In this document: positions 31,348 to 64,000 of the stretch, piece after piece | Layout: each line of letters opens with the position of its first letter | How positions within the stretch are numbered: the stretch's first letter is position 1 | Assembly (NCBI RefSeq): GCF_036365525.1 | Contig: NC_090421.1 | Location: forward strand, 7,823,133-7,887,132 | Source of the DNA: Heterodontus francisci | Taxonomy: Eukaryota | DNA: 64,000 nucleotides | Direction of reading: 5' to 3' | The notes under the pieces: generated by a model | Told to the model about the DNA's origin: nothing | Database searches by the model: none | The model's input: the letters and a program-made list of their open reading frames with translations, nothing else | Position numbers and translations under genes: made by a program

Positions 31348-31354
31348 CATAAAA
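31348..31354 (+). promoter_or_regulatory. TATA-like box (CATAAAA), copy 1; repeated at 47953-47959 and 61500-61506
   Basis: CATAAAA 75-81 bp upstream of the ATG, in GC-rich context. Confidence 0.55.
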
Positions 31355-31428
31355 GCAGCTGAAGCCGCCCTCAGCTGCACCAGCCGTTCAGTTTCGGACT
31401 CTCCGCTCTCTCAAGCAACGTCAACACG

Positions 31429-31860: not shown

Positions 31861-34800
31861 GTAATTTGAACGATTGTCCAGTCGGTCGTCTTTGTAACCC
31901 AGAGTTTTGTGCCTCTGCTCAATCACTTGCTGTCACTCTGCAAATTGCTCTTCTCGCTTTGCAACCGATTGCGTTCAAATGTAACCGTGCATTCATTTTA
32001 CACCGTCAGGTTCGTGCCCTGGAAGAGATCAATAAGAAGCTGGAGATCAAACTGAATCTTCTGAAAGAACAAGGAACTTACAAATCAAACATCGACTCTA
32101 TGTTCCAGACTTACATTGATAACCTCAAAAGGCAACTGGATACTCTTGGGCAGGAGAAGCTGAAGTTCGAGGCTGACCTTGTCCAGATGCAGGGTCTGGT
32201 TGAGGACTTTAAGTGCAAGTAAGTGTGTTGCTGCTGAATTTGCGAGGGCATTTCTTCTGATCCCGTATCGTGTCCCAACTGAACAAAGTCCCAGGTTCAG
32301 ATTAAGATCATTTTGACCAATTGATCAGGACCCGGCAAAATATCACCGGGCGAAATAATCCGTAGGATGGTCATGTGGACAAAAGTGAAATAGCGAAGAT
32401 AAATGGCTGTACTCGTCACCGTGACAGTAGCCTGTGCTGAGTCAGCTGGTCTCTGCTGGGATACAGCTGTGGTGCCACATTTGGCCTCAGTACCTGTGGA
32501 GAAGGAAACATCAACCAGTGCCCCTGTAGGTGTGGCAATTGAGTCTGGGCGGGAGCCCGAGTGTGTGTTCGTGCTTTGTTAAACTGGGGCTTTAGTGTGG
32601 GTGATCCATTCTGTTGAAGCGCTAACAGGACTGATGCTTCTCAGAGCAGAGTGTGAACACTTCGGGGATGGTGTATATCTTGTGGAGGGAAACATATGAA
32701 GGATAGTGCACAATAGAATATAGATAAATAAGGAGTGTGAGGAAAGCGTGGCTTCGCGATGGGAACCTGCATTTACTCAGTGCAAGGGGCTCCGAGCAAT
32801 AAGTTAGGGCTGGGCAACCCAGAATTGCTTCCTTCACCATGGAAACGGACAGAAAGGTTTATTAACAGCAAGAGATTAACAGCAAAATAATCTGTTTCAT
32901 TCCAGATACGAAGATGAAATTAACAAGCGCACAGAAATGGAAAATGAGTTTGTCTTGGTCAAGAAGGTGAGTATAACCATATATTTCTGTCTGCCGGGCC
33001 AGAGCAAGCGGATCTCTTGGCAGAGTTTCTCAAAGCACTTTGTCCCTCTCCTCTTTAGGATGTCGATGACTCCTACATGAGCAAAGTAGAGCTGGAAGCT
33101 AAACTGGAAAGCCTCACCGATGAAATCGAATTCCTCAAGTCAATCTTTGAAGAGGTAAAAATGTGACAGGGTCCACCAGTTGGCCTTCTGCTGTTTAATC
33201 CAATCAAATGTAATCCAATCCAGTTTGAATGCTTCCTATCTCCTTTCAATCTGTTTTTTTTTCTCCCCTTCGCCGTTCTTTAGGAAATCCGTGAGCTGCA
33301 GGCACAGATTCAGAACACATCTGTCTGCGTGCAACTGGAGAGCAGACCCAACCTGAACGTAGATGACCTGATTGCTCAAGCCAGACATCAGTACCAATTA
33401 CTCGCAGACGCCAACCGTGCAGACGCTGAAGCATGGAAACAGACCAAGGTCAGCTCTTTAAGATCCCGATCACCATTTACCACTTGTATTGGTTGGTCTG
33501 TAGCCGACGCTGAAGTGTGAAATCTTTTACTAACCAGTTGCCAATGTTTCATTGCAGATGCAGGAACTGTCCATGTCGTCTGGACAATGCGGTGATGACC
33601 TCCGTGTGGTGAAAAGCCAGATTGTTGAAATGACTAAGTTGATCAGTAGACTGAATGGTGATATCGACGGTCTGAAACAGCGGGTAGGCAAAGAACTGAA
33701 ACCAAACAGGATATTGGGACCACCTGAATTAGTGTTGTCAAGGACCTGTCTTGTCTTTCTGGGTCTCTCTTTCTCATTTCCCTCCCCCATCCAAAATAAT
33801 GGGAAGAACCAGTTGAAGGATCAGCTCAATCTGGCCTATTTCTGCCAGTCTCAGTCTCTCACTGATGATTCCATTTCGATCCTTGTAAGGAAAAGTTTTG
33901 ATATGAATCCATTGCCAGTCAGTCTGCGGTCCACACCACACCTACTCTTTCCCAATTCACTGACATGAGGGAGAGGCTTTCCCCTTTTGAGTGCTCTTCT
34001 GATACACAAAATGTCCAGGAAACTAACCATATTAATATTTGTGCTACTTAGCGTGTCAGACTGGAGGCTGACATCCAAGAAGCTGAGGAACGTGGTGAGC
34101 TCTCCCTCAAAGATGCCAGGATTAGGATTGCAGAACTGGAAGCTGCCATCAACAAAGCAAAAAATGACCTGACCCGCCAAGTCCAAGAATACAATCAGCT
34201 GCTGAATGTCAAGGTGTCTCTTGATCTTGAAATTGCCACCTACATGAAACTACTGGAGGGAGAGGAGGACAGGTAAGATGTGGGACAGTTACAGATTCCA
34301 GACATCACACTGAGCACAGTCCACAGTTTCCTATAGGAGCAGATTACAATCTGTACTTGCAGTTTATTGGTATTGTCATTACCGTAGCTTTGATCTCTGA
34401 TAATGGAATGAAGTGTGGACACTCATGAGTGGCAGGTTACTCTAAATCACTTACTTTGGTTTAAAGGCTGCTTTGTATCTAAGTAGACACAAACATCACA
34501 CTCCCTCCCAGGATGAAGCCCTGCATGGTGATTCACTCTTCCTTTTATAGAGATGGTCCAGGAAAGGTCTCCTGATGACTCACTGGGTGAAGACATTGTG
34601 GAACTGAGCCACATTGACCAGAAGTTCCACCAGGCCAGCAGTTGGGGTGTACAGTTGGGCGGTGTGCCCCAAGCAAGGGAGGGTAAAAGCAACCCAAGAT
34701 CCTGTTCCTGATTGCCGGACAGTGAAGGTGCAGATCTTCCTTCCCCATGGCCAAATAGCCTGCTGGCATTTGCTGTCTGTGCTCACATGTGAAGAATGGG

Positions 34801-37199
34801 CACTTTGGGTGAGGGCCTGGAGGTTGACTGTACCCATGGAACTGCTCCACAGTTGTTGTCAGTGTCCTTGCGACAGGGAGAAAATTGGTAAACTAGAGGT
34901 AAATCTGACTGTGAATGTAATGCAAATACCTGCTGTAATGTGAAGATGTTTCCTTTATCAACAGAATGGCATCTGGGATAAAAACCCTCAACATCCAGCA
35001 AGTACAGAACCAAGGTAAAAGAACTTCTAATTCCTAGTTTGAGATCATAATTCCTGGAGGAAAACCTAGACATCGAAAAGAAAAATGGGAAATTCTGGAA
35101 ATACATCGTAGGTTCATCATCAGCTGAAATGAAAGGAGACAGGTTGTCATTTTAGGTTTCGACCCGAGGTCACTGTGTATGTGTTCTGAAGAAGGGCCTA
35201 CAGTGCTCCTCAAAACTTAAGCTCTCTTTGTTCTGTTTTCAGAGGCTGATGGACCTGCTGTGCATTTCCAGCATTTCAGTTGTCATTTCAGTCAATCATA
35301 ATTGTAAATAATGTCTCTGTGTTTAATAATGAGAGCAATAGTTGTCGAATATAAGGACAAGATGTAATTACTTCTAGTACTGCTGACTACCCAACTTGCC
35401 TTCCTGGCCACCATGCTGGCTGATAAGGTTTAATGATTCCTTCTCCTCTGGCACTGTCCCCCTCCCGTTCAAATCAGCCATCATCACCCTCCACCTCAAA
35501 AAACCCACATTTCATCCTCTGTCCTTGCAAACTGCCGCCCATCTCCAACTTTCCTTTCCTCGTCAAAGTCTTTGAATGTGTTGTTGCCTCCCAAATACGT
35601 GCAACTCCATGCTTGAACCTCTTCAGTCAGGTTTCTGCCCTGGCCACAGCACTGCAGCAGCCCTTATCAAAGTCACAAATGACATCCTACGTAGTAAACT
35701 ATCTCTCCTCATTCTTCACTACCTGTCTGCAACCATAGATATGGCTGACTGCTCCATTGTTCTCCATTGCCCCTTCTGCTTGGTACAGCTGGGTGGGACT
35801 GCCCTTGCCTGATTCCATTGCTGTCTGTCCAGTCATAGCCAGAGAATTTCCTACAATGGCTTCTTTTCCTGCTCCCGCATTGTTAACTCTGGAGTCCCCA
35901 AGGATAGATTCTTACTCCAATCCTATTTCTCATTCACAGGCTGTCTCACGACGATATCATCCAAAAATGTAACATCAGATTCCATATGTATGCTGATGAC
36001 ACCCAGCTGGACCTCATTACCACTTTTGGCCCCTCCACTGCTTCTGCTTTGTCATCCTGCTTGTCCAAAATCCAGTTTTGGATAAGCAGAAATTTCCTCC
36101 AATGCAACATTGGGATGACCAAAGCCATTGTCTTTGGTCTCCATCACAAATGCCATTCACTAACTACCAACTGCACCCCTCCCTGGCCATTGTCTGTGGC
36201 TGAACCTGTTGGCAACCTTGGTATCATATTTGACCCTGAGCTGTGCTTCTGAACCCAAAGCCACTCCATCACCAAGACCACCCACTTCCACCTCCGTAAC
36301 ATCCTCTGTCTCCGCGACTACCTCAGCCCATCGAATGCTGAAAGCCACATTTCATGATTTGTTAGCCCCAGACTCAACTACTCCAATTACTCTTGGCTGG
36401 CCTCCCACCTCCCACCCTCATAAATTTCAGCTCATCCAAAATTCTGTTCCCGTAGCTTAACATACATCAAGTCCTGCTGACCTTTTGTGCTCAATGACCT
36501 ACCTTGGCTCCCAATCTGGCAATGCCTCGAATTGATAATTCTCATCTTTATGTTCACATTCCTCCCTGGCATCGCCCCTCTCTATCTCTGTAACTTCCTC
36601 CAGCTCTACAATCCTCTGTGAGATCTCTGCACTCCTCCATTTCTGTCCTCTTGTGCATCACCGATTTCCATCATCCCACCATTGGCGGCCATGCTTTCAA
36701 CTACCACGTCCGTAAGTTTAGGAATTCCCTCCATAAACCTCTCTGCCTCTCTACCTCCCTGTCTCCTCCTTTAAGACTTCTGTGTTTGAGCAAGCTTTTG
36801 TCCAAATATATTCTTTACGTGGTTGGGTGTCCAATTTTTATTTGATAAAGCTACTGTGAAGCACCTTGGAATGTTTTGTGAAGTTAAAGGTGCTATATAA
36901 ATGCAAATTGTTTCTCTTGTTGTACTATGTTCTTATAATCTAGGTTCCTACAATTAAAAGAGTGTATTTTTTCCCCTTTTACAGCTAATGTTCAGCAGTT
37001 TAGTGGAATGAGTGGGGGTTTGTCTGGATATGTCCAAGGCATGAGCAACAGCAGTGGGTACGGCAACTTGGAAACCTCTGTACTCAGTTCAGGAGGCTCT
37101 GCTTTCAGTGGCGGCATGGGTGGCGGCGGAGGTAGCAGCAAAACTGTGATTGTGAAATCAGTGCAACAAACCAGTGGTGGATATAAAAGTTCATCTTGA
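31429..37199 (+). CDS. Type II keratin gene B copy 1, complete, 524 aa: join(31429..31860,32010..32218,32906..32966,33059..33154,33284..33448,33558..33683,34052..34272,34965..35014,36985..37199)
   Basis: Nine GT-AG exons; internal sizes 209/61/96/165/126/221 are the type II (K8-like) pattern. Ser/Gly head, [23 protein letters not shown] rod, Gly/Ser tail. 1575 nt, open frame. Confidence 0.95.
32010..32218 (+). CDS. Gene B copy 1 exon 2
   Basis: 209 bp, [14 protein letters not shown]...LVEDFKCK. Confidence 0.93.
32906..32966 (+). CDS. Gene B copy 1 exon 3
   Basis: 61 bp, [20 protein letters not shown]. Confidence 0.93.
33059..33154 (+). CDS. Gene B copy 1 exon 4
   Basis: 96 bp, [32 protein letters not shown]. 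Confidence 0.93.
33284..33448 (+). CDS. Gene B copy 1 exon 5
   Basis: 165 bp, [38 protein letters not shown]. Confidence 0.93.
33558..33683 (+). CDS. Gene B copy 1 exon 6
   Basis: 126 bp, [25 protein letters not shown]...LKQR. Confidence 0.92.
34052..34272 (+). CDS. Gene B copy 1 exon 7
   Basis: 221 bp, [16 protein letters not shown]...[18 protein letters not shown]. Confidence 0.93.
34965..35014 (+). CDS. Gene B copy 1 exon 8
   Basis: cag|AATGGCATCT...CAAG|gtaaa, 50 bp, [16 protein letters not shown]. Confidence 0.85.
35430..36920 (+). mobile_element. Decayed L2 LINE in gene B intron 8 (copy at ~52026-53516)
   Basis: [29 protein letters not shown]-like motif, GCTATATAAATGCAAATTGTT tail. 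Confidence 0.8.
36985..37199 (+). CDS. Gene B copy 1 exon 9 (tail, stop)
   Basis: Pyrimidine tract then cag|CTAATG; Gly/Ser tail ...[21 protein letters not shown]. Confidence 0.9.
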
Positions 37200-37605
37200 A
37201 TCAACAAGGAATAAACTAATGCCAGCAGTGTCTCTTACCAGTGCAGTGATGAGCTCATTGTCAGAGGCTGTCTTTCCTATACGTACTATGTTTAGTGCAG
37301 TGGTTAACACGTTTGGATTAACTTCATGTCTGCTATTTAGAACACCTTCATTAACCTGTTTTACTTCACATAGTTAAATGACATGAAATTAACATTGACT
37401 TCTTAACCAGTGCACAGGGGAAATTCAACCTAGTAAAGGCCAATATTTTGGGTTTGTGGGAAAAGCGGTTAAGAAACTCACATTTTATTTGTTGGTCCCT
37501 TTTAAAATGGGAAATAAACCAAAGTTTTCGGTGCTGAACTCTGTTTCAAGATTCTGTATCATTTTGTATTGGGGATTTATCTTCTTTGACATTCCTGTTA
37601 TGGTG

Positions 37606-44300: not shown

Positions 44301-45733
44301 TTCTCCCTTATCTATTCTACTAATTTATTTTGTTTCTTTTGGCCTCCTTATCTCGAGAGACAATGGATAAGCGCCTGGAGGTGGTCAGTGATTTGTGAAG
44401 CAGCGCCTGGAGTGGCCATAAAGGCCAATTCTAGAGTGCCAGGCTCTTCCACAGGTGCTGCAGAGAAATTGTTTGCCGGGGCTGTTACACAGTTGGCTCT
44501 CCCCTTGCGCTTTTGTCTTTTTTCCCGCCAACTGCTAAGTCTCTTCGACTCGCCACACTTTAGCCCCGCCTTTATGGCTGCCCACCAGCTCTGGCGAACG
44601 CTGCCAACTGACTCCCACGACTTGTGATCAATGTCACAGGACTTCATGTCGCGTTTGCAGACGTCTTTAAAGCGGAGACATGGACGACCGGTGGGTCTGA
44701 TACCAGTGGCGAGCTCGCTGTACAATGTGTCCTTGGGGATCCTGCCATCTTCCATGCGGCTCACATGGCCAAGCCATCCCAAGCACCGCTGACTCAGTAG
44801 TGTGTATAAGCTGGGGATGTTGGCCGCCTCGAGGACTTCTGTGTTGGAGATACGGTCCTGCCACCTGATTCCATCTTCACTGCCTCCGGAGAATACTTGG
44901 CATCAGGTGAGTTGAACAGGGGTTTTTAGTATTTTAACATTGAGATAGGTGTTCAGGGACCGAGAGCCAATGTGAATCAGTGAGCACAGGGTGAATGAGT
45001 GAATGGAACTTGCTGCGAGTTGGGATCGAGGCAGCAGACTGTTGGATGAGCTCAAGTTTGTGAAGGCTGGAAAGTGGGAGGCCAGTTAGCAGAGAATTCA
45101 AATAGTCAAGAGCGAACAAAAGTATGGCTGATGGTTTCAGCAGCAGCAGCAGCAGCAGTTGTCCAAAGGGCTGAGACGGGTGATAATCCGGAGGCGATGG
45201 AATGGCAAGATCCCAGTGATGAAGTAGCTGCACACTCTTTGCCCTCGCTCACACAGTCTCGCTGTGCTGTTCTGCACTGAATTCTCGAGATGCATTGGGT
45301 TTTAGAGCTGGTCGGGAACAAGTGACATTTCTGCTGGCCCGGGTATGTGAGCTGTAAGCTGCCAAAACAGACAATCCCAGAAACAGCCGACGCAGGGGTG
45401 AGCGAGATTGGAGCTCAGATAATCCCTCCTCCATCAGGATTTAACGCTTTATTTACAACAGGCAGCTACCAACAGCGAATAGGCGACTTCAACATCTGCA
45501 AATTTGTTTAGGCTCAAAGAGCAAGCGAGCCATTCGCAAACTGTGCAGATACATCAATAAAAGTTCATCCAGCCCACTCCCCAAGACACATTTAAAGCCA
45601 CGGAATTGACCCTCAGTAATGGACTATCTGCTGTCTAAAAGCAAAATACTGCGGATGCTGGAAATCTGAAACAAAAACAAGAAATGCTGGAATCACTCAG
45701 CAGGTCTGGCAGCATCTGTGGAAAGAGAAGCAG

Positions 45734-45770
45734 AGTTAACATTTCGGGTCAGTGACCCTTCTTCGGAACT
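45734..45770 (-). ncRNA. Hammerhead motif (unit 1, left arm) with mutated helix III palindrome
   Basis: GAAATGTT instead of GAAACGTT (position 45741). Confidence 0.5.
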
Positions 45771-46123
45771 GACAAATATTAGAAAAGTCACAGATTATAA
45801 ACAAGTGAGGTGGGGGTGGGGCAAGAGATAACAAAGGAGAAGGTGCAGATTGGAACAGGCCACATAGCTGACCAAAAGGTCACGGAGAACAGGCAAACAA
45901 TATGTTAATGGTGTGTTGAAAGACAAAGCATTAGTACAGATTAGGTGTGAATACACTGAATATTGAACAGCAGCAAGTGCAAACCTGAAGAAAAACAACC
46001 TGAAAAAAAGTGGGTAAGCAAACTGAACAAACTAAGATGAAATGAAATAAATGCAAAAAAAGATTGTAAAAAATGTAAAAAGGAAGAAAAAATAACTAAA
46101 AATGAAAGTAAAGTGGGGGGCTG

Positions 46124-46453
46124 TCATGCTCTGAAATTATTGAACTCAATGTTCAGTCCGGCAGGCTGTAGTGTGCCTAATCGGTAGATGAGATGCTGTT
46201 CCTCGAGCTTGCGTTGATGTTCACTGGAACACTGCAGCAATCCCAGGACAGAGATGTGAGCATGAGAGCAGGGGGGAGTGTTGAAATGGCAAGCAACCGG
46301 AAGCTCAGGGTCCTGCTTGCGGACTGAGCGGAGATGTTCCGCAAAGCGGTCACCCAGTCTGCGCTTGGTCTCCCCAATGTAGAGGAGACCACACTGTGAG
46401 CAGCGAATACAGTATACTACATTGAAAGAAGTACAAGTAAATCGCTGCTTCAC
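46124..46453 (-). pseudogene. Penelope GIY-YIG endonuclease domain (fragment of truncated pol)
   Basis: VVY...YIGETKRRLGDRFAEH...HF...EQHLI...GLN motifs; an upstream in-frame TGA interrupts the thumb region. Confidence 0.85.
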
Positions 46454-47533
46454 CTGAAAGGAGTGTTTGGGGCCTGGGATAGTGAGGAGAGAGGAGGTAA
46501 ATGGGCAGGTATTACACCTCCTGCGATTGCAGGGGAAGGTGCCCTGGGATGGGGACGAGGTGGTGGGGGTAATGGAGGAGTGGACCAGGGTGTCGCGGAG
46601 GGAACGATCCCTTCGGAATGCTGACAGGGGAAGGGAGGGGAAGATGCGACTGGTAGTGGCATCACGCTGGAGGTGGCGGAGGATGATCCTTTGGATATGG
46701 AGGCTGGTGGGATGAAAAGTGAGGACAAGGGGAACCCTGTCACGGTTCTGGGAGGGAGAGGAAGGGGTGAGGGTAGAGGTGCGGGGAATGGGTCAGACAC
46801 GGTTGAGGGCCCTGTCAACCACAGTGGGGGGAAATCCTCGGTTGAGGAAAAAGGAGGTCATATCAGAAGCACCGTCATGGAAGGTAGCATCATCAGAGCA
46901 GATGCGTCGGAGACGGTGAAACTGGGAGAATGGAATGGAGTCCTTACAGGAGGTAGGGTGTGAAGAAGTGTAGTCGAGGTAGCTGTGGGAGTCAGTGGGC
47001 TTATAATGGATATTGGTAGACTCTCCCCCCTGCTCTCATGCTCACATCTCTGTCCTGGGATTGCTGCAGTGTTCCAGTGAACATCAACGCAAGCTCGAGG
47101 AACAGCATCTCATCTACCGATTAGGCACATTACAGCCTGCCGGACTGAACATTGAGTTCAATAATTTCAGAGCATGACAGCCCCCCATTTTACTTTCATT
47201 TTTAGTTATTTTTTCTTCCTTTTTTACATTTTTTACAATCTTTTTTTGCATTTATTTCATTTCATCTTAGTTTGTTCAGTTTGCTTACCCACTGTTTTTT
47301 TCAGGTTGTTTTTCTTCAGGTTTGCACTTGCTGCTGTTCAATATTCAGTGTATTCACACCTAATCTGGACTAATGCTTTGTCTTTCAACACACCATTAAC
47401 ATATTGTTTGCCTTTTCTCCGTGACCTTTTGGTCAGCTATGTGGCCTGTTCCAATCTGCACCTTCTCCTTTGTTATCTCTTGCCCAACCCCCACCTCACT
47501 TGTTTATAATCTGTGACTTTTCTAATATTTGTC

Positions 47534-47570
47534 AGTTCCGAAGAAGGGTCACTGACCCGAAACGTTAACT
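47534..47570 (+). ncRNA. Minimal type I hammerhead ribozyme motif in the Penelope arm
   Basis: AGTT-CCGAAGA-A-GGGTC-ACT-GACCC-GAAACGTT-AACT: stem I, CUGANGA-like core (C at U4), stem II, GAAA, ACGU palindrome. Confidence 0.65.
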
Positions 47571-48033
47571 CTGCTTCTCTTTCCACAGATGCTGCCAGAC
47601 CTGCTGAGTGATTCCAGCATTTCTTGTTTTTGTATCTGCTGTCTAATACTGCCAGCTGCTCTCTCCATTTCCATTCATCATGTCCATAGGAGTTGCTCGC
47701 CTATCAAACAGCTCCTTCACAGGGCCCTTTCACGGCCCTTGGAGCCTCCCGGTCCTACACACAACTGATGATCTCGGGGGCTGCTCCCAACAGCCACACC
47801 TTGTCACTGCCGCCAAGTCGCACTCAAGGCAAGATGCAGCTGCTGCTGCTCCGCAAAGGGACAGGTTGTAACCCGTGGCAGAGGGCGGCGGCTGGCTCCT
47901 CCTCTCTATTGCTGTTATCTGACACCCTGACCAAGCTTCCATCCACAGAGCCCATAAAAGCAGCTGAAGCCGCCCTCAGCTGCACCAGCCGTTCAGTTTC
48001 GGACTCTCCGCTCTCTCAAGCAACGTCAACACG

Positions 48034-48456
48034 ATGTCCAGTCAGCAGGTTCGCTATTCCAGCAGCAGCAGCAGCGGAGGCGGCGGCGGCGGCCGCATGA
48101 CAATCAGACAACATTTCGGCGCACCGAGCACCGGCAAAAGCTATGCCATGTCCAGCCGCTTCAGCTCAGGTGGCTTCAGCTCAGGTGGCTTCAGCTCAAG
48201 TGGTGGACTGCAGCGCGCACGAAGTATGATCAGCACTCCACAACTGAGAATGTCAATGTCGACCAAACGAGGCACTTTCCAGAATCGGAGCGGTTTCAGC
48301 TCTGGCTCTTTGTCTCAGGGGCTGTTGCAGGCAACTAGTAATATTGACCTGAACGCCCCTCTCCCCCAAAATGACACCAGCCTGCAAAATGTCCGGGTGC
48401 AGGAGAGCAAACAGATCATGCATCTCAACGACAAGTTTGCCTGTTTCATTGACCAG
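48034..48456 (+). CDS. Gene B copy 2 exon 1
   Basis: 423 bp, in frame. Confidence 0.9.
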
Positions 48457-51400
48457 GTAATTTGAACGATTGTCCAGTCGGTCGTCTTTGTAACCCAGAG
48501 TTTTGTGCCTCTGCTCAATCACTTGCTGTCACTCTGCAAATTGCTCTTCTCGCTTTGCAACCGATTGCGTTCAAATGTAACCGTGCATTCATTTTACACC
48601 GTCAGGTTCGTGCCCTGGAAGAGATCAATAAGAAGCTGGAGATCAAACTGAATCTTCTGAAAGAACAAGGAACTTACAAATCAAACATCGACTCTATGTT
48701 CCAGACTTACATTGATAACCTCAAAAGGCAACTGGATACTCTTGGGCAGGAGAAGCTGAAGTTCGAGGCTGACCTTGTCCAGATGCAGGGTCTGGTTGAG
48801 GACTTTAAGTGCAAGTAAGTGTGTTGCTGCTGAATTTGCGAGGGCATTTCTTCTGATCCCGTATCGTGTCCCAACTGAACAAAGTCCCAGGTTCAGATTA
48901 AGATCATTTTGACCAATTGATCAGGACCCGGCAAAATATCACCGGGCGAAATAATCCGTAGGATGGTCATGTGGACAAAAGTGAAATAGCGAAGATAAAT
49001 GGCTGTACTCGTCACCGTGACAGTAGCCTGTGCTGAGTCAGCTGGTCTCTGCTGGGATACAGCTGTGGTGCCACATTTGGCCTCAGTACCTGTGGAGAAG
49101 GAAACATCAACCAGTGCCCCTGTAGGTGTGGCAATTGAGTCTGGGCGGGAGCCCGAGTGTGTGTTCGTGCTTTGTTAAACTGGGGCTTTAGTGTGGGTGA
49201 TCCATTCTGTTGAAGCGCTAACAGGACTGATGCTTCTCAGAGCAGAGTGTGAACACTTCGGGGATGGTGTATATCTTGTGGAGGGAAACATATGAAGGAT
49301 AGTGCACAATAGAATATAGATAAATAAGGAGTGTGAGGAAAGCGTGGCTTCGCGATGGGAACCTGCATTTACTCAGTGCAAGGGGCTCCGAGCAATAAGT
49401 TAGGGCTGGGCAACCCAGAATTGCTTCCTTCACCATGGAAACGGACAGAAAGGTTTATTAACAGCAAGAGATTAACAGCAAAATAATCTGTTTCATTCCA
49501 GATACGAAGATGAAATTAACAAGCGCACAGAAATGGAAAATGAGTTTGTCTTGGTCAAGAAGGTGAGTATAACCATATATTTCTGTCTGCCGGGCCAGAG
49601 CAAGCGGATCTCTTGGCAGAGTTTCTCAAAGCACTTTGTCCCTCTCCTCTTTAGGATGTCGATGACTCCTACATGAGCAAAGTAGAGCTGGAAGCTAAAC
49701 TGGAAAGCCTCACCGATGAAATCGAATTCCTCAAGTCAATCTTTGAAGAGGTAAAAATGTGACAGGGTCCACCAGTTGGCCTTCTGCTGTTTAATCCAAT
49801 CAAATGTAATCCAATCCAGTTTGAATGCTTCCTATCTCCTTTCAATCTGTTTTTTTTTCTCCCCTTCGCCGTTCTTTAGGAAATCCGTGAGCTGCAGGCA
49901 CAGATTCAGAACACATCTGTCTGCGTGCAACTGGAGAGCAGACCCAACCTGAACGTAGATGACCTGATTGCTCAAGCCAGACATCAGTACCAATTACTCG
50001 CAGACGCCAACCGTGCAGACGCTGAAGCATGGAAACAGACCAAGGTCAGCTCTTTAAGATCCCGATCACCATTTACCACTTGTATTGGTTGGTCTGTAGC
50101 CGACGCTGAAGTGTGAAATCTTTTACTAACCAGTTGCCAATGTTTCATTGCAGATGCAGGAACTGTCCATGTCGTCTGGACAATGCGGTGATGACCTCCG
50201 TGTGGTGAAAAGCCAGATTGTTGAAATGACTAAGTTGATCAGTAGACTGAATGGTGATATCGACGGTCTGAAACAGCGGGTAGGCAAAGAACTGAAACCA
50301 AACAGGATATTGGGACCACCTGAATTAGTGTTGTCAAGGACCTGTCTTGTCTTTCTGGGTCTCTCTTTCTCATTTCCCTCCCCCATCCAAAATAATGGGA
50401 AGAACCAGTTGAAGGATCAGCTCAATCTGGCCTATTTCTGCCAGTCTCAGTCTCTCACTGATGATTCCATTTCGATCCTTGTAAGGAAAAGTTTTGATAT
50501 GAATCCATTGCCAGTCAGTCTGCGGTCCACACCACACCTACTCTTTCCCAATTCACTGACATGAGGGAGAGGCTTTCCCCTTTTGAGTGCTCTTCTGATA
50601 CACAAAATGTCCAGGAAACTAACCATATTAATATTTGTGCTACTTAGCGTGTCAGACTGGAGGCTGACATCCAAGAAGCTGAGGAACGTGGTGAGCTCTC
50701 CCTCAAAGATGCCAGGATTAGGATTGCAGAACTGGAAGCTGCCATCAACAAAGCAAAAAATGACCTGACCCGCCAAGTCCAAGAATACAATCAGCTGCTG
50801 AATGTCAAGGTGTCTCTTGATCTTGAAATTGCCACCTACATGAAACTACTGGAGGGAGAGGAGGACAGGTAAGATGTGGGACAGTTACAGATTCCAGACA
50901 TCACACTGAGCACAGTCCACAGTTTCCTATAGGAGCAGATTACAATCTGTACTTGCAGTTTATTGGTATTGTCATTACCGTAGCTTTGATCTCTGATAAT
51001 GGAATGAAGTGTGGACACTCATGAGTGGCAGGTTACTCTAAATCACTTACTTTGGTTTAAAGGCTGCTTTGTATCTAAGTAGACACAAACATCACACTCC
51101 CTCCCAGGATGAAGCCCTGCATGGTGATTCACTCTTCCTTTTATAGAGATGGTCCAGGAAAGGTCTCCTGATGACTCACTGGGTGAAGACATTGTGGAAC
51201 TGAGCCACATTGACCAGAAGTTCCACCAGGCCAGCAGTTGGGGTGTACAGTTGGGCGGTGTGCCCCAAGCAAGGGAGGGTAAAAGCAACCCAAGATCCTG
51301 TTCCTGATTGCCGGACAGTGAAGGTGCAGATCTTCCTTCCCCATGGCCAAATAGCCTGCTGGCATTTGCTGTCTGTGCTCACATGTGAAGAATGGGCACT

Positions 51401-53795
51401 TTGGGTGAGGGCCTGGAGGTTGACTGTACCCATGGAACTGCTCCACAGTTGTTGTCAGTGTCCTTGCGACAGGGAGAAAATTGGTAAACTAGAGGTAAAT
51501 CTGACTGTGAATGTAATGCAAATACCTGCTGTAATGTGAAGATGTTTCCTTTATCAACAGAATGGCATCTGGGATAAAAACCCTCAACATCCAGCAAGTA
51601 CAGAACCAAGGTAAAAGAACTTCTAATTCCTAGTTTGAGATCATAATTCCTGGAGGAAAACCTAGACATCGAAAAGAAAAATGGGAAATTCTGGAAATAC
51701 ATCGTAGGTTCATCATCAGCTGAAATGAAAGGAGACAGGTTGTCATTTTAGGTTTCGACCCGAGGTCACTGTGTATGTGTTCTGAAGAAGGGCCTACAGT
51801 GCTCCTCAAAACTTAAGCTCTCTTTGTTCTGTTTTCAGAGGCTGATGGACCTGCTGTGCATTTCCAGCATTTCAGTTGTCATTTCAGTCAATCATAATTG
51901 TAAATAATGTCTCTGTGTTTAATAATGAGAGCAATAGTTGTCGAATATAAGGACAAGATGTAATTACTTCTAGTACTGCTGACTACCCAACTTGCCTTCC
52001 TGGCCACCATGCTGGCTGATAAGGTTTAATGATTCCTTCTCCTCTGGCACTGTCCCCCTCCCGTTCAAATCAGCCATCATCACCCTCCACCTCAAAAAAC
52101 CCACATTTCATCCTCTGTCCTTGCAAACTGCCGCCCATCTCCAACTTTCCTTTCCTCGTCAAAGTCTTTGAATGTGTTGTTGCCTCCCAAATACGTGCAA
52201 CTCCATGCTTGAACCTCTTCAGTCAGGTTTCTGCCCTGGCCACAGCACTGCAGCAGCCCTTATCAAAGTCACAAATGACATCCTACGTAGTAAACTATCT
52301 CTCCTCATTCTTCACTACCTGTCTGCAACCATAGATATGGCTGACTGCTCCATTGTTCTCCATTGCCCCTTCTGCTTGGTACAGCTGGGTGGGACTGCCC
52401 TTGCCTGATTCCATTGCTGTCTGTCCAGTCATAGCCAGAGAATTTCCTACAATGGCTTCTTTTCCTGCTCCCGCATTGTTAACTCTGGAGTCCCCAAGGA
52501 TAGATTCTTACTCCAATCCTATTTCTCATTCACAGGCTGTCTCACGACGATATCATCCAAAAATGTAACATCAGATTCCATATGTATGCTGATGACACCC
52601 AGCTGGACCTCATTACCACTTTTGGCCCCTCCACTGCTTCTGCTTTGTCATCCTGCTTGTCCAAAATCCAGTTTTGGATAAGCAGAAATTTCCTCCAATG
52701 CAACATTGGGATGACCAAAGCCATTGTCTTTGGTCTCCATCACAAATGCCATTCACTAACTACCAACTGCACCCCTCCCTGGCCATTGTCTGTGGCTGAA
52801 CCTGTTGGCAACCTTGGTATCATATTTGACCCTGAGCTGTGCTTCTGAACCCAAAGCCACTCCATCACCAAGACCACCCACTTCCACCTCCGTAACATCC
52901 TCTGTCTCCGCGACTACCTCAGCCCATCGAATGCTGAAAGCCACATTTCATGATTTGTTAGCCCCAGACTCAACTACTCCAATTACTCTTGGCTGGCCTC
53001 CCACCTCCCACCCTCATAAATTTCAGCTCATCCAAAATTCTGTTCCCGTAGCTTAACATACATCAAGTCCTGCTGACCTTTTGTGCTCAATGACCTACCT
53101 TGGCTCCCAATCTGGCAATGCCTCGAATTGATAATTCTCATCTTTATGTTCACATTCCTCCCTGGCATCGCCCCTCTCTATCTCTGTAACTTCCTCCAGC
53201 TCTACAATCCTCTGTGAGATCTCTGCACTCCTCCATTTCTGTCCTCTTGTGCATCACCGATTTCCATCATCCCACCATTGGCGGCCATGCTTTCAACTAC
53301 CACGTCCGTAAGTTTAGGAATTCCCTCCATAAACCTCTCTGCCTCTCTACCTCCCTGTCTCCTCCTTTAAGACTTCTGTGTTTGAGCAAGCTTTTGTCCA
53401 AATATATTCTTTACGTGGTTGGGTGTCCAATTTTTATTTGATAAAGCTACTGTGAAGCACCTTGGAATGTTTTGTGAAGTTAAAGGTGCTATATAAATGC
53501 AAATTGTTTCTCTTGTTGTACTATGTTCTTATAATCTAGGTTCCTACAATTAAAAGAGTGTATTTTTTCCCCTTTTACAGCTAATGTTCAGCAGTTTAGT
53601 GGAATGAGTGGGGGTTTGTCTGGATATGTCCAAGGCATGAGCAACAGCAGTGGGTACGGCAACTTGGAAACCTCTGTACTCAGTTCAGGAGGCTCTGCTT
53701 TCAGTGGCGGCATGGGTGGCGGCGGAGGTAGCAGCAAAACTGTGATTGTGAAATCAGTGCAACAAACCAGTGGTGGATATAAAAGTTCATCTTGA
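48034..53795 (+). CDS. Type II keratin gene B copy 2, complete, 521 aa: join(48034..48456,48606..48814,49502..49562,49655..49750,49880..50044,50154..50279,50648..50868,51561..51610,53581..53795)
   Basis: Matches copy 1 at offset +16596 after the head repeat; exon 1 is 9 bp shorter; splice sites intact. Confidence 0.93.
48606..48814 (+). CDS. Gene B copy 2 exon 2
   Basis: Same as copy 1 exon 2. Confidence 0.92.
49502..49562 (+). CDS. Gene B copy 2 exon 3
   Basis: Same as copy 1 exon 3. Confidence 0.92.
49655..49750 (+). CDS. Gene B copy 2 exon 4
   Basis: Same as copy 1 exon 4. Confidence 0.92.
49880..50044 (+). CDS. Gene B copy 2 exon 5
   Basis: Same as copy 1 exon 5. Confidence 0.92.
50154..50279 (+). 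CDS. Gene B copy 2 exon 6
   Basis: Same as copy 1 exon 6. Confidence 0.91.
50648..50868 (+). CDS. Gene B copy 2 exon 7
   Basis: Same as copy 1 exon 7. Confidence 0.92.
51561..51610 (+). CDS. Gene B copy 2 exon 8
   Basis: Same as copy 1 exon 8. Confidence 0.85.
53581..53795 (+). CDS. Gene B copy 2 exon 9
   Basis: Same as copy 1 exon 9. Confidence 0.9.
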
Positions 53796-56700
53796 ATCAA
53801 CAAGGAATAAACTAATGCCAGCAGTGTCTCTTACCAGTGCAGTGATGAGCTCATTGTCAGAGGCTGTCTTTCCTATACGTACTATGTTTAGTGCAGTGGT
53901 TAACACGTTTGGATTAACTTCATGTCTGCTATTTAGAACACCTTCATTAACCTGTTTTACTTCACATAGTTAAATGACATGAAATTAACATTGACTTCTT
54001 AACCAGTGCACAGGGGAAATTCAACCTAGTAAAGGCCAATATTTTGGGTTTGTGGGAAAAGCGGTTAAGAAACTCACATTTTATTTGTTGGTCCCTTTTA
54101 AAATGGGAAATAAACCAAAGTTTTCGGTGCTGAACTCTGTTTCAAGATTCTGTATCATTTTGTATTGGGGATTTATCTTCTTTGACATTCCTGTTATGGT
54201 GAATAAACTTCTGAACTACAAATATGGACTGCTCTTTGCTTAAGCACAATATTAACTTGCTGAAAAGAACAAGTTTCATACACTCTTGTGAAATTTAACA
54301 ACTTTGAAATATTTGAACATAAAGTTTGGAGCAATGTTATGAAACATAGAAAGACTACTTTGTGTATTCCATAGCAAAAACACACCAGACTGTCACTGAA
54401 ACCATTCAGTGCACTAATATAGATACAGCAAAGTTTAACAACAATCCAACTCCAACCTTTTTCTCCTCCACAATGATATAACTTCTCCCATCAGTTGAGA
54501 AAACCAGCTTTGGGCACATGATTTTTTTTTAAATCTCCCGATCTGGTCACAACGGAACCTGTGTATCTAAAATGCAGGCCACCTCATTTGTATGCGATAG
54601 CGAGAGATGCGTTGGGTTAGAACACTTGCCCTCGGGTCTGTGTTCAAATACAGTGCAGTGCGATCGAGGAAAGTATCCCTATCTACTGACTGTAAGTGTT
54701 GTACATGAAATGATTTTGTGCAGTTAGTATAGGCCTACAGTACAAAGTGCTGACTAATTTGTAGTAACAAGCACTCAGTAAGCAGCCTCGCTAAGACAGG
54801 CCACAGGATAGCTCGTGTGGGGAATGGAGAAATATCACACTGATGTAGTAATGCCATAGGGACTGAGGCATATTCTTGGAGCAGAGGAGAGGAGCTCTAC
54901 TCTGTATTAAGCCATGCTTCGAAAAGGCAACTGGGCATATTTGATGTCGACTATTCTAAAGAACCTTAGTTACTCAGATAGGTGTAATAAGCCAGGTCTA
55001 TTTACATTCGAGCAGTGTAGATACAGAGGAGACCAGGTCGAACTTTATAAAGTAATGTAAGTTGCTGGATAGTGTGTCTGCTGATAGACTATTCCAGTTT
55101 AACAGATTATGGAGTACCAGGGGACATGGGTTTAAACTACACAATAGTAGCAACAGACTGGATGTTGGGCAGCTCTTCTTATCGTCCTCATATTCCTCTG
55201 GAATATGTTGCTGGCTTGTGTGGTGTCCTCTGACCCTGCACACTTCAAGAGGGAGCTGGACCAGTTCTTGACTGGGGCAGAGATTGCATCATCTAGAAGG
55301 TCAGTGGCATCATAGGCAACACTTGGTGCATGTGATCTCCTGGACTGGTTCTGATCACCTGAGCGGGTTGGGGAGGAACTTTCCGGAGCATTTCTTCCCT
55401 TACGGGCCCTGGGGTTTTCTCCCTTACTTTGCCATTTTGCCTCTCCAGGAAATTACATGGCTAAGATTACAAACGAGCAGTTTGCTTGGAATAGGAATAT
55501 TCCTTCTAGGAATTGTCCATGTATAATGTGGCAAAACCATCCCTGAATCCCCCATCATCAACATCCTGGGTGTCACCATTGACCAGAAACTTAGCTGCAT
55601 CAGCCACATAAATACTGTGGTTAAAAAAGGTCAGAGGCTGACTATTCTGTGGCAAATGACTCAACACTTTCCACCATCAACAAGGGATGGGTCAGGAGTC
55701 TGATGGAATATTCTCCAATTACTTGGATGAGTGCAGATCCAACAGTACTCAAGATGCTCAATACGATCCAGGACAAAGCAGCCCGCTTGATCAGCACCCC
55801 ATCCACCAACTTAAACATTCACTCCCTCCACCACCGGTGCACAGTGGCAGCAGTTTGTACCATCTACAAGATGCACTGCAGCAACTCACCAAGGCTCCTT
55901 CGACAGCACCTTCCAAACCCGTGACCTCAACCACCTAAAAGGACAAGGGCAGCAGCACCTGTAATTTCCCCTCCAAATCACACACCATACTGACTTGGAA
56001 ATATATCGCTGTTCCTTCACTGTGGCTGGATAAAAATCCTGGAACTCCCTCCCTAACAGCATTGTGGGTGTACCTACCCCACATGAACTGCAGCGGTTCA
56101 AGAAGGCAGCTCACCATCACCTTCTCAAGTGCAATTAGGGATGGGCAATAAATGCTGGCATTGCCAGCAAATCCCACACCTCATGAACGAATAAACCAAA
56201 AAATGGATACTCTTTTCCATTTAAATCCTTTTTTTAAAGAGCTATTTATTCCCCAAATTTAGCAATCTTCCAGTTACCACAGGCTGACAAAAACGCAGCA
56301 GGGATCCTCCTGAGTTTCCACAGTAAACCAGCTGGTGGAGCCCTTGCGACATAGCACTCAGGCAATTTGATTGCTCTGGCAAGTGGAGTCTTTCAATCAG
56401 CTCCCACACTGTGCTGCTGTCTGCATTCTGTCTACCCCAAAGAGTGCAAAAAACACTTTCATGCTCAAACACTTTGGGCGAGGGAACTCTGCTACAAACA
56501 ATAACTTGCATTTATCTCGCGCCTTTAACTAAAACGTCCCCATGAGCTTCACAAGAGGATAGTCAGGTATCATTTGACACTGAGCTATATAAAGAGACTT
56601 GAGGAGAGGTGAGCAGAAGCTTCGTGAAAGAGAACGCTTTGAAGGAAACATAGAAAATAGGAGCAGGAGTAGGCCATTCGGCCCTTCGGGCCTGCTCCGC

Positions 56701-59280
56701 CATTCAAAAAAGATCATGGCTTACCGTCTAATTCAGTACCCTGTTCCCGCTTTCTCCCCATATCCCTTGATCCCTTTGACATTAAGAAATATATCCATCT
56801 CCTTCTTGAATATATTTAATGACGGCCTCCACTGCCTTCTGCGGTAGAGAATTCCACAGGTTCACCACCCTCCGAGTGAAGACATTTCTCCTCATCTCGG
56901 TTCTAAATGGCATAGCCCACATCCTGAGACTGTGACCCCTGGTTCTGGACTCCCCATCCTCCCTGCATCTCGCCTGTCTAGTCCTGTTCCAATTTTATAG
57001 GTTTCTATGAGATCCCCTCTCGTTCTTCTAAACTCTAGTGAATATAGCCCAATCTCTCCTCATACATCAATCCTGCCATTCCAGGAATCAGCCTAGTAAA
57101 TCTTCTTTGTACTCCCTCCATAGCAAGAACATCCTTCCTCAGATAAGGAGACCAAAACTGCACACAATACTCCAGATGTGGTCTCACCAATGCCCTGTAT
57201 AACTGCAGTAAGACATCCTTGCTCCTGTACTCAAATCTTCTTGCAATGAAGGCCAATATACCACTCGCCTTCCTAACTGCTTGCTGCACCTGAATGCTTG
57301 CTTTCAGCGACTGGTGTACAAGGGCACCCAGGCCTCGTTGCACCTCCCCCTTTCCCAATCTATCACCATTCAGATAATAATCTGCCTTTCTGTTTTTACA
57401 ACCAAAGTGGATAACCTCACATTTATCCACGTTATACTGCATCTGCAATGCATTTGCCCACTCAGCCAACTTGTCCAGATCACATTGGAGCCTCTTAGCA
57501 TCCTGTTCACAGCTCACATTCCACCCCCTCACTCCCTTCCCCCCCCACCACCCCAGCTTTGTGTTGTCTGCAAACTTGGAAATGTTACTTTTACTTTTCT
57601 CACCCAAGTCATTAATATATATTGTGAATAGCTGGGGCCCAAGCACTGATCCCTGCGGTACCCCACTAGTCACTGCCTGCCACCCGGAAAAAGACCTGTT
57701 TATTCCTACTCTGTTTCCTGTCCGTCAACCAATTCTCAATCCATGCCAGTACATTACCCCCAATCCCATGTGCTTTAATTTTGCACACTAACCCCTTATA
57801 TGGGACCTATCAAAAGCCTTCTGAAAATCCAAATACACCACATCCACTGGTTCTCCCTTATCTATTCTACTAATTTATTTTGTTTCTTTTGGCCTCCTTA
57901 TCTCGAGAGACAATGGATAAGCGCCTGGAGGTGGTCAGTGATTTGTGAAGCAGCGCCTCGAGTGGCTATAAAGGCCAATTCTAGAGTGCCAGGCTCTTCC
58001 ACAGGTGCTGCAGAGAAATTGTTTGCCGGGGCTGTTACACAGTTGGCTCTCCCCTTGCGCTTTTGTCTTTTTTCCCGCCAACTGCTAAGTCTCTTCGACT
58101 CGCCACACTTTAGCCCCGCCTTTATGGCTGCCCACCAGCTCTGGCGAACGCTGCCAACTGACTCCCACGACTTGTGATCAATGTCACAGGACTTCATGTC
58201 GCGTTTGCAGACGTCTTTAAAGCGGAGACATGGACGACCGGTGGGTCTGATACCAGTGGCGAGCTCGCTGTACAATGTGTCCTTGGGGATCCTGCCATCT
58301 TCCATGCGGCTCACATGGCCAAGCCATCCCAAGCACCGCTGACTCAGTAGTGTGTATAAGCTGGGGATGTTGGCCGCCTCGAGGACTTCTGTGTTGGAGA
58401 TACGGTCCTGCCACCTGATTCCATCTTCACTGCCTCCGGAGAATACTTGGCATCAGGTGAGTTGAACAGGGGTTTTTAGTATTTTAACATTGAGATAGGT
58501 GTTCAGGGACCGAGAGCCAATGTGAATCAGTGAGCACAGGGTGAATGAGTGAATGGAACTTGCTGCGAGTTGGGATCGGGGCAGCAGACTGTTGGATGAG
58601 CTCAAGTTTGTGAAGGCTGGAAAGTGGGAGGCCAGTTAGCAGAGAATTCAAATAGTCAAGAGCGAACAAAAGTATGGCTGATGGTTTCAGCAGCAGCAGC
58701 AGCAGTTGTCCAAAGGGCTGAGACGGGTGATAATCCGGAGGCGATGGAATGGCAAGATCCCAGTGATGAAGTAGCTGCACACTCTTTGCCCTCGCTCACA
58801 CAGTCTCGCTGTGCTGTTCTGCACTGAATTCTCGAGATGCATTGGGTTTTAGAGCTGGTCGGGAACAAGTGACATTTCTGCTGGCCCGGGTATGTGAGCT
58901 GTAAGCTGCCAAAACAGACAATCCCAGAAACAGCCGACGCAGGGGTGAGCGAGATTGGAGCTCAGATAATCCCTCCTCCATCAGGATTTAACGCTTTATT
59001 TACAACAGGCAGCTACCAACAGCGAATAGGCGACTTCAACATCTGCAAATTTGTTTAGGCTCAAAGAGCAAGCGAGCCATTCGCAAACTGTGCAGATACA
59101 TCAATAAAAGTTCATCCAGCCCACTCCCCAAGACACATTTAAAGCCACGGAATTGACCCTCAGTAATGGACTATCTGCTGTCTAAAAGCAAAATACTGCG
59201 GATGCTGGAAATCTGAAACAAAAACAAGAAATGCTGGAATCACTCAGCAGGTCTGGCAGCATCTGTGGAAAGAGAAGCAG

Positions 59281-59317
59281 AGTTAACGTTTCGGGTCAGT
59301 GACCCTTCTTCGGAACT
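59281..59317 (-). ncRNA. Minimal hammerhead ribozyme motif (unit 2, left arm)
   Basis: Exact reverse complement of the right-arm motif. Confidence 0.62.
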
Positions 59318-61080
59318 GACAAATATTAGAAAAGTCACAGATTATAAACAAGTGAGGTGGGGGTGGGGCAAGAGATAACAAAGGAGAAGGTGCAGATTGG
59401 ACCAGGCCACATAGCTGACCAAAAGGTCACGGAGAACAGGCAAACAATATGTTAATGGTGTGTTGAAAGACAAAGCATTAGTACAGATTAGGTGTGAATA
59501 CACTGAATATTGAACAGCAGCAAGTGCAAACCTGAAGAAAAACAACCTGAAAAAAAGTGGGTAAGCAAACTGAACAAACTAAGATGAAATGAAATAAATG
59601 CAAAAAAAGATTGTAAAAAATGTAAAAAGGAAGAAAAAATAACTAAAAATGAAAGTAAAGTGGGGGGCTGTCATGCTCTGAAATTATTGAACTCAATGTT
59701 CAGTCCGGCAGGCTGTAGTGTGCCTAATCGGTAGATGAGATGCTGTTCCTCGAGCTTGCGTTGATGTTCACTGGAACACTGCAGCAATCCCAGGACAGAG
59801 ATGTGAGCATGAGAGCAGGGGGGAGTGTTGAAATGGCAAGCAACCGGAAGCTCAGGGTCCTGCTTGCGGACTGAGCGGAGATGTTCCGCAAAGCGGTCAC
59901 CCAGTCTGCGCTTGGTCTCCCCAATGTAGAGGAGACCACACTGTGAGCAGCGAATACAGTATACTACATTGAAAGAAGTACAAGTAAATCGCTGCTTCAC
60001 CTGAAAGGAGTGTTTGGGGCCTGGGATAGTGAGGAGAGAGGAGGTAAATGGGCAGGTATTACACCTCCTGCGATTGCAGGGGAAGGTGCCCTGGGATGGG
60101 GACGAGGTGGTGGGGGTAATGGAGGAGTGGACCAGGGTGTCGCGGAGGGAACGATCCCTTCGGAATGCTGACAGGGGAAGGGAGGGGAAGATGCGACTGG
60201 TAGTGGCATCACGCTGGAGGTGGCGGAGGATGATCCTTTGGATATGGAGGCTGGTGGGATGAAAAGTGAGGACAAGGGGAACCCTGTCACGGTTCTGGGA
60301 GGGAGAGGAAGGGGTGAGGGTAGAGGTGCGGGGAATGGGTCAGACACGGTTGAGGGCCCTGTCAACCACAGTGGGGGGAAATCCTCGGTTGAGGAAAAAG
60401 GAGGTCATATCAGAAGCACCGTCATGGAAGGTAGCATCATCAGAGCAGATGCGTCGGAGACGGTGAAACTGGGAGAATGGAATGGAGTCCTTACAGGAGG
60501 TAGGGTGTGAAGAAGTGTAGTCGAGGTAGCTGTGGGAGTCAGTGGGCTTATAATGGATATTGGTAGACTCTCCCCCCTGCTCTCATGCTCACATCTCTGT
60601 CCTGGGATTGCTGCAGTGTTCCAGTGAACATCAACGCAAGCTCGAGGAACAGCATCTCATCTACCGATTAGGCACATTACAGCCTGCCGGACTGAACATT
60701 GAGTTCAATAATTTCAGAGCATGACAGCCCCCCATTTTACTTTCATTTTTAGTTATTTTTTCTTCCTTTTTTACATTTTTTACAATCTTTTTTTGCATTT
60801 ATTTCATTTCATCTTAGTTTGTTCAGTTTGCTTACCCACTGTTTTTTTCAGGTTGTTTTTCTTCAGGTTTGCACTTGCTGCTGTTCAATATTCAGTGTAT
60901 TCACACCTAATCTGGACTAATGCTTTGTCTTTCAACACACCATTAACATATTGTTTGCCTTTTCTCCGTGACCTTTTGGTCAGCTATGTGGCCTGTTCCA
61001 ATCTGCACCTTCTCCTTTGTTATCTCTTGCCCAACCCCCACCTCACTTGTTTATAATCTGTGACTTTTCTAATATTTGTC

Positions 61081-61117
61081 AGTTCCGAAGAAGGGTCACT
61101 GACCCGAAACGTTAACT
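61081..61117 (+). ncRNA. Minimal hammerhead ribozyme motif (unit 2, right arm)
   Basis: Identical to 47534-47570. Confidence 0.65.
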
Positions 61118-63841: not shown

Positions 63842-64000
63842 GTAGGCAAAGAACTGAAACCAAACAGGATATTGGGACCACCTGAATTAGTGTTGTCAAG
63901 GACCTGTCTTGTCTTTCTGGGTCTCTCTTTCTCATTTCCCTCCCCCATCCAAAATAATGGGAAGAACCAGTTGAAGGATCAGCTCAATCTGGCCTATTTC

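Follow-up and report, generated by a model that had tools for sequence, protein, structure and literature searches.

To our knowledge, hammerhead ribozymes are nearly universal in the pLTRs of Penelope-like elements (PLEs). The closest described relatives of the motifs considered here are the minimal type I hammerheads (min-HHRs) that Cervera and De la Pena (2014, PMC4209133) described in metazoan PLEs, among them Neptune, Poseidon and Xena elements of fishes. As set out in excerpts of that paper, they combine a short helix I, an unpaired base before the pair G10.1-C11.1, GAAA, a CG palindrome that replaces helix III, and an NUH triplet; they sit in the pLTR, occur as thousands of dispersed copies, include opposite-strand pairs a few hundred bases apart, and are weak in vitro as dimers. 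EN+ PLEs of the Neptune/Nematis type are described, in the sections of PMC8557442 used here, as encoding an RT followed by a C-terminal GIY-YIG endonuclease, with a CX2-5CxxC linker and tandem pLTRs; inverted 5′-truncated copies with a one-sided tail of 30-40 bp are standard for EN+ elements. For a Poseidon element of the anole, PAc, the one reconstituted system, cleavage has been assayed with the protein (Frangieh et al. 2024, PMC11167929): excerpts of that study place the hammerhead in the pLTR near the tail, and describe cleavage only in the presence of the element's protein, insertion in vitro by catalytic mutants, uncut RNA as the main template, and a cut site at which RNA-seq showed no ends.

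Other hammerheads bear on the comparison. A natural U4C variant of a viroid hammerhead has considerably decreased activity in vitro and retains infectivity (Ambros and Flores 1998, as cited in an excerpt of PMC3088659), and a deep mutational scan of a type III hammerhead measured low activity for variants with one change in the CUGA turn (PMC9901934, in its excerpted text). Host-domesticated hammerheads are described from the 3′ UTR of Clec2 and an intron of RECK (excerpt of PMC6155905), and non-LTR retrozymes as tandem units of ~50-1000 nt that each contain a hammerhead (excerpt of bioRxiv 10.64898/2026.07.22.740005).

Four motifs of the PLE kind lie in the window, by which we mean the whole stretch of 64,000 nucleotides of Heterodontus francisci that was analysed. 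All four were found where a preliminary description had placed them – on the plus strand at 47534-47570 and 61081-61117, and on the minus strand at 59281-59317 and 45734-45770 – and their anatomy is as described there: a 4-bp stem I, the core CCGAAGA, an unpaired A, a 5-bp stem II, GAAA, the palindrome ACGU, and GUU, with the cut in the first motif predicted after 47566 (standard hammerhead numbering). The core, shared by all four, fits CUGANGA at six of seven positions, position 4 being C (C4 in place of U4). Palindrome and NUH triplet (GAAA-CG-UU) are kept in three of the four; the copy at 45734 reads AUGU, which had also been claimed and is seen in the sequence, and comparison of the copies shows this to be a CpG transition at 45741 that is private to one insertion copy and arose after duplication. 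In fold predictions stem II, with the unpaired A before G10.1-C11.1 in place, pairs with a probability of at least 0.98; stem I pairs with a probability of 0.57-0.79 in the isolated 37-mer and of 0.01-0.02 in RNAs of 267-501 nt.

These motifs are not a product of chance composition. With at most one mismatch allowed, the window holds seven matches vs 2.12 expected, a number reached by none of 100 shuffles, with the proviso that the seven include duplicate copies and hence are not independent. The exact 37-mer occurs 23,220 times in the 6.0-Gb genome vs zero times for its reversed control, and there is thus nothing keratin-specific about it. A search with Rfam, proposed earlier as a check, gave no hammerhead match at E up to 1 in the 64-kb window and returned only a weak match to uc_338; since the motifs lack helix III, the lack of a hammerhead match would be expected. 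A descriptor scan of the fetched loci produced matches from this Penelope family alone. Elsewhere in the window (20622-20748) an older stub from the same pLTR family survives in decayed form; it has G3 and U4.

The likeness to PLE min-HHRs covers each feature listed above, from the short helix I to the opposite-strand pairs. The departure is C4, where U4 stands in every row examined of the figure S3 alignment of PMC4209133; the descriptor given in the excerpted text of that paper fixed the core, and a C4 form could therefore have been missed. The word 'shark' is absent from the part of its supplement that was searched (file 2). The motif would work like the PLE min-HHR, from which it descends and whose consensus it matches at all but position 4; because U4 belongs to the defining core we file it as a variant, not as a strict member. 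The viroid U4C hammerhead shares with it a natural core change compatible with propagation, and differs in that C4 is there a viroid variant (PMC3088659, in part) and here the majority letter of a retroelement subfamily of ~46,000 copies, and in that the present motif is minimal and needs a partner. Full-text search found no report of a C4 PLE hammerhead and none of a shark PLE hammerhead. Either may be listed by Lunse et al. 2017, said to catalogue PLE hammerhead variants, or in the bioRxiv supplements.

The motifs make up the arms of a single Neptune-type Penelope-like insertion, 5′-truncated and partly inverted, that was later duplicated. The first copy spans 45639-47632 and is bounded by 14-bp target-site duplications (TSDs) at 45625..45638 (left) and 47633..47646 (right); the same 14-mer recurs at 59172 and 61180, and a single copy of it stands in the organism B contig with the empty site, discussed below. 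The main, 5′-truncated copy of the element (45639..47021, minus strand) comprises the RT end, the GIY-YIG endonuclease, the pLTR and the tail, and aligns in 1410 columns, with 96.6% identity, to a natural unit of full length at locus L041; compared with that unit, a 31-nt 'tail' extension (45639..45669, minus strand) belongs to this arm alone. A remnant frame at 46124..46792 (minus strand) carries a CX4CxxC linker and a GIY-YIG endonuclease (Pfam E 3.3e-4; 21.3 bits, under the 22.6 cut-off) and does not share its reading frame with the piece that lies upstream at 46793-47035. The inverted arm (47020..47632, plus strand) consists of the endonuclease end and the pLTR, is aimed at the keratin gene, and is 98.4% complementary to 45671-46281 over 614 columns. 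The earlier statement that motifs occur on both strands is correct as an observation and reflects a single inverted insertion of standard Penelope structure, as excerpts of PMC8557442 and PMC4209133 describe it. Elsewhere in the genome an inverted partner lies within 1.5 kb at 6 of 30 loci sampled by the young tail and 3 of 30 sampled by the old tail.

A second insertion copy, the product of segmental duplication, lies at 59186..61179 with TSDs at 59172 and 61180 and two differences from the first, and a third sits just past the window edge. The three differ at 2-3 positions. Being nearly identical, they indicate that the insertion came first and was then duplicated with a 13.5-kb keratin unit; with so few differences they are also too young to show selection.

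The unit used for comparison comes from a head-to-tail array (L041, G000:C1:23221404-23230620) of identical 3,290-nt units with an unbroken frame of 916 amino acids and a C4 motif at each unit junction. The frame matches RVT_1 (E 6.3e-6) and GIY-YIG (E 0.0018), both below the Pfam curated cut-offs, and contains YIDD at residue 561 and a linker, CNRRRCNTC, at residue 782 (CX2-5CxxC type). We assign the element, by this linker and not by a tree, to what would be the Neptune/Nematis type; its RT and C-terminal GIY-YIG, its linker, its tandem pLTRs and its inverted 5′-truncated copy with a one-sided tail agree with the EN+ elements of PMC8557442, and no structural difference from the excerpted description was found. 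The array is a candidate for a recently active element and provides a natural dimer context for the motif. The earlier identification is supported: these are minimal motifs of hammerhead type from Penelope pLTRs, a class believed to cleave in dimeric form. By extension from published PLE hammerheads, the proper setting of the motif would be the element's own head-to-tail array, in which two motifs on one RNA, spaced by 3,290 nt, could pair through ACGU, form helix III and be cut after GUU.

A critical question is whether C4 reflects decay. It does not: C4 is the letter of the source element and marks the youngest subfamily, and local decay is ruled out. Among one-letter versions of the exact 37-mer, U4 accounts for 1,083 copies and the CpG control G5A for 933; these are the two products expected from CpG decay of CCGA, from which it follows that C4 is the source letter. 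The excess of U4 over G5A is small (p = 0.0009) and leaves room for ~150 true U4 intermediates. The same counts, set against 23,220 C4 copies, dispose of two further candidates, namely that C4 is a private mutation and that the U4 copies of the young subfamily are its functional ones. A looser pattern of 33 places gives another picture of the family at large: 45,969 copies have C at position 4, 33,229 have U and 1,651 have a purine, with 2,196 copies of the G5A control. Here the U4 count lies far over the control, and ~31,000 U4 cores therefore represent real older subfamilies.

Sampling by the tail sequence downstream of the core tells the same two classes apart, with C4 in 23 of 29 young-tail loci vs 3 of 28 old-tail loci; the sample is non-random, being the first 30 matches on contig C1 per tail, with two pairs that are arms of one insertion and three register-shifted rows dropped. 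Divergence in 28 unselected columns is 0.7% for the young class (30 of 30 rows) vs 7.9% for the old (28 of 30 rows, two with indels having been dropped; p = 1e-7), a figure that overstates the age of the old class, which mixes subfamilies. The pair 10.1-11.1 is G-U in 16, A-U in 7, G-C in 2 and otherwise in 3 of 28 old-tail loci, and G-C in 25 and G-U in 4 of 29 young-tail loci, so that the young subfamily gained the canonical G10.1-C11.1 together with C4. The other four pairs of stem II show no covariation; all of this is one lineage, and C/U at 11.1 is also a CpG site. As a separate observation, 5 of 15 loci (L143-L157) have GG for AA in the 3′ strand of stem I after the cut site, which would give G-U pairs and is possibly a small subfamily.

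What the C4 core can still do is the next issue. Judging from the viroid variant, the mutational scan, the anole element and the weakness of minimal dimers in vitro, the motif is most likely a ribozyme that depends on a partner and acts slowly, more so than its U4 ancestor, a reading in which we place about half of our confidence. We looked for a footprint of cleavage, an indirect test in which genomic copies starting at the predicted cut are compared with those starting at neighbouring positions. Young-tail copies gave raw counts of 220 at the cut, 37 at +1, 59 at -1 and 157 at +2 vs 50,401 uncut. Flanks were truly unrelated in 6 of 30, 9 of 15, 3 of 15 (4 of 15 by script, one reclassed by eye) and 1 of 15 of these, respectively, and the corrected counts are ~44 (17-85), 22 (12-31), 12 (3-28) and 10 (0-50). 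For old-tail copies the raw counts were 481 at the cut and 129 at +1 vs 30,767 uncut, with unrelated flanks in 9 of 30 and 11 of 20 by script and in 2 and 8 by eye, and corrected counts of ~32 (4-106) and ~52 (25-82). Much of the raw excess among young-tail copies is AACT microhomology in inverted arms together with GAAA-to-AACT deletions, and the two-letter flank filter detects only about half of true junctions. For C4-linked and U4-linked tails there is no clear signal at the cut site, where the share of copies that begin is no more than a few tenths of a percent. As neither tail class shows a clear footprint, the test does not discriminate.

The strongest competitor to a slow ribozyme is a core that is catalytically dead, its sequence kept for a promoter, for the template RNA's 5′ end or for protein binding. 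We think this unlikely, yet it has substance: C4 breaks the CUGA turn (in the excerpted text of PMC9901934), copies show no excess of starts at the cut site, and excerpts of PMC11167929 describe hammerhead mutants without effect on insertion of the anole element in vitro. Against this, the young subfamily keeps the other core letters, both stems and the palindrome, and the pair 10.1-11.1 stays paired through A-U, G-U and G-C; moreover, the older U4 subfamilies are equally without a cut-site footprint, which means that the footprint cannot tell a dead core from a live one. Less probable still is that C4 is fully compensated – by G10.1-C11.1, by A7 or by the element's protein – and that the motif cuts as well as one with U4. 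C4, A7 and C11.1 are common letters of one subfamily, that subfamily is the most numerous in the genome, and protein-assisted cleavage is described in part of PMC11167929; but these letters may merely hitchhike on one successful source element, and in the excerpted scan of PMC9901934, made on a different, type III ribozyme, only a C3-G8 swap rescued the CUGA turn. The slow ribozyme remains our preferred account of the C4 core.

We turn now to the keratin genes among which the insertion lies. The array holds three insertions and four keratin copies, of which three have their ATGs in the window (31429, 48034 and 61581) and the fourth lies past its edge. Copy 1 (31190..37216, plus strand) is without insertion or shared upstream flank. 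Copy 2 (48034..53811, plus strand; Pfam Filament E 9.9e-14) has nine exons, a stop ending at ~53795 and AATAAA at 53806; by its exon layout it would be Type II-like. Copy 3 (61581..64000, plus strand) runs past the window. The plus-strand motifs precede the ATGs at 48034 and 61581, which lie 468 nt past the predicted cut, in line with the ~460 nt given earlier. Copies 1-3 have all nine exons and their own AATAAA, and the idea that they lack a last exon, forcing read-through, was discarded: it is copy 4 whose last exon is absent within the 40 kb fetched downstream. The repeat unit is the 13.5-kb keratin duplication, and its unique flank occurs three times in the genome, always in this array.

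The array copies differ at about 0.2-0.3% and may be an assembly artefact; depth of the flank contig in run X1, which may be the source sample, is 25.9 vs 5.7-9.4 for the six other contigs listed, a weak hint on this matter. The array is also circularly permuted. Over window positions 31190-64000 and on in G000:C51 to about the window equivalent of 79695, copy 1 is without its natural upstream flank (as judged from organism B), copy 4 is without its last exon, and the flank is found only in the three junctions. This suggests an origin from a circle or a rolling-circle product, or else later deletions at both ends. A 4.3-kb stretch at 21161-25477 is inverted relative to 40758-45027 and 54308-58577 (97-99% identity) and thus lies upstream of the array and in each unit; it resembles a young LINE, presumably CR1-like, through which the duplication may have come about. 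Unit 1 has one further tandem copy, of 3 kb, at 37425-40477, exon 1 (48079-48220 and its counterparts in copies 1, 3 and 4) shows small length changes in the Gly/Ser-rich head repeats, and exon matches to a more distant keratin gene at 3710-3786 and 9312-9350 place the window in a keratin cluster.

Sequencing runs that we take to be RNA (X5, X6, X7 and X10, a guess in each case) throw some light on transcription, with the reservation that contigs cannot show transcript starts. In runs X5 and X6 of organism A, contigs join keratin exons 1-8 at GT..AG ends and extend upstream to 47933 and 47953. They have a 3-nt gap at 48079, which fits exon 1 of copy 4 (518 vs 521 nt) or an allele. In X5, X6 and X10 there is no cover at 47671-47887, nor in X5 at 45074-45623; contigs drop rare forms, and missing cover is therefore not proof against read-through or against RNA started in the pLTR. 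The flank also has no cover in run X11, which is from another sample. Depth over the motif comes from the whole repeat family and is for that reason uninformative on this locus. A contig of 694 nt from run X7 of organism B joins 45369-45638 (record 3-283) to 47633-48057 (record 270-694), the two parts overlapping by exactly one TSD: this is the empty site, and it follows that the insertion is recent. Organism B, the one related species compared, thus has the orthologous site empty and spliced keratin contigs without a motif. The X7 contig begins ~670 nt, not counting the insertion, before the keratin ATG and runs on into exon 1, a hint of an upstream start or of upstream transcription through the site where the insertion later landed. 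In organism B the insertion site may accordingly be transcribed into keratin exon 1, which counts in favour of the premise of the preliminary description.

The motifs of the window are very probably pLTR passengers of one recent insertion duplicated with a keratin gene, and likely cut nothing there; a role in regulating keratin is not supported. The decisive point was already raised as a caveat when the motifs were first described, namely that pairing of the two arms could mask the motif. RNA crossing the insertion on either strand would make the complementary arm before the motif, and a hairpin of 614 bp is predicted that would bury the motif in RNA of the keratin locus. In the minimum free energy fold of 45601-47700, 36 of the 37 bases of the plus-strand motif and all 37 of the minus-strand motif pair with the other arm. 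The predicted energies are -64.9 kcal/mol for the duplex of motif and arm, -7.8 for the monomer and -5.5 for helix III of the dimer (-1.2 for that of an AUGU dimer); these are equilibrium predictions, and ADAR or helicases could open the hairpin. Cleavage as a dimer across the tandem array, an idea of the preliminary description, fares poorly given that 13.5 kb of DNA, including an entire spliced gene, separate the plus-strand motifs. Taken together, the read-through distance of 7,307 and 10,356 nt from the previous AATAAA to the predicted cut, the predicted masking by the other arm, and the 13.5-kb spacing over a polyadenylated gene make cutting at the keratin genes unlikely.

Masking would be escaped by RNA that begins inside the plus arm. 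Such RNA is without the masking arm, and stem II is still predicted to form, with a pair probability of 0.6-0.9. The corresponding proposal, which strikes us as quite improbable, is that the pLTR of the plus arm serves as a promoter for keratin, with RNA starting at ~47534, carrying an unmasked motif, and perhaps losing its first 33 nt when it pairs in trans with the element's abundant RNA. At 15 of 30 young-tail loci, and likewise at 22 of the 30 sampled by the old tail, the element does not reach beyond stem I on its upstream side, as if RNA began there, and TCAGTT at 47532 resembles an initiator. Drosophila Penelope pLTRs, moreover, are described as holding an internal promoter able to drive downstream genes (excerpt of PMC2377424). 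Against the proposal, four upstream ATGs intervene between 47534 and the keratin ATG, the predicted pairing of stem I falls to 0.01-0.02 in RNAs of 267-501 nt, and the pLTR bears CpG, its copies decaying like methylated DNA. Across both tails, 37 of 60 tail-anchored copies (L208-L267) stop at stem I, and many insertions are therefore stubs that start at the first bases of the motif.

In the original proposal, read-through RNA arriving from the preceding keratin copy is cut by the plus-strand motif, acting singly or together with the next one; the copies would thereby be insulated. In its favour, the motif has the same orientation as the keratin genes, each of the three junctions keeps it intact, and a contig of organism B crosses the site. 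We consider it very improbable indeed, given that the previous gene has an AATAAA 7,307 or 10,356 nt before the cut, that the complementary arm would precede the motif in the RNA and by prediction mask it, that partners on the plus strand are 13,547 and 13,568 nt apart, that organism B, whose site is empty, has spliced keratin contigs, and that insertions differing at 2-3 positions are too young to show selection.

Three other known systems invite comparison. Host-domesticated hammerheads resemble the present case in that a motif lies near a host gene (excerpt of PMC6155905); they differ in that the keratin motif is absent in a related species, lies outside the spliced contigs, is minimal and is identical to a young repeat. 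Non-LTR retrozymes differ by their ~50-1000 nt tandem units, as given in the excerpt cited above, in place of a 13.5-kb unit. The anole PAc hammerhead is alike in its location in the pLTR near the tail and in the predominance of uncut template without reads at the cut site, to the extent covered by the excerpts of PMC11167929, and unlike in belonging to the Poseidon clade and in having been assayed with its protein, the present motif being known from sequence alone.

The link to keratin is thus an ordinary one, that of a young transposon insertion which a segmental duplication carried along. The kind of motif is itself known, and the new point is the subfamily-wide switch from U4 to C4 in the youngest wave. 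One practical consequence is that searches which fix CUGA overlook most of the family, 45,969 out of the 80,849 cores that have this geometry and G5. A successful subfamily with a changed core base also lets one ask whether the rate of cleavage matters for spread; and given that U4C is reported to lower hammerhead activity, the C4 subfamily lets one test in nature if self-cleavage is needed by Penelope elements. It is quite possible, though somewhat less likely than not, that the youngest and largest wave of this Penelope family, with ~46,000 C4 cores and intact tandem elements that persist in the genome, took the place of the canonical U4 ancestors with a ribozyme that was crippled. Were this true, self-cleavage would be dispensable for PLE retrotransposition in vivo, or even a brake upon it, and the pair of C4 and U4 subfamilies would be a ready-made natural experiment on the purpose of PLE hammerheads.
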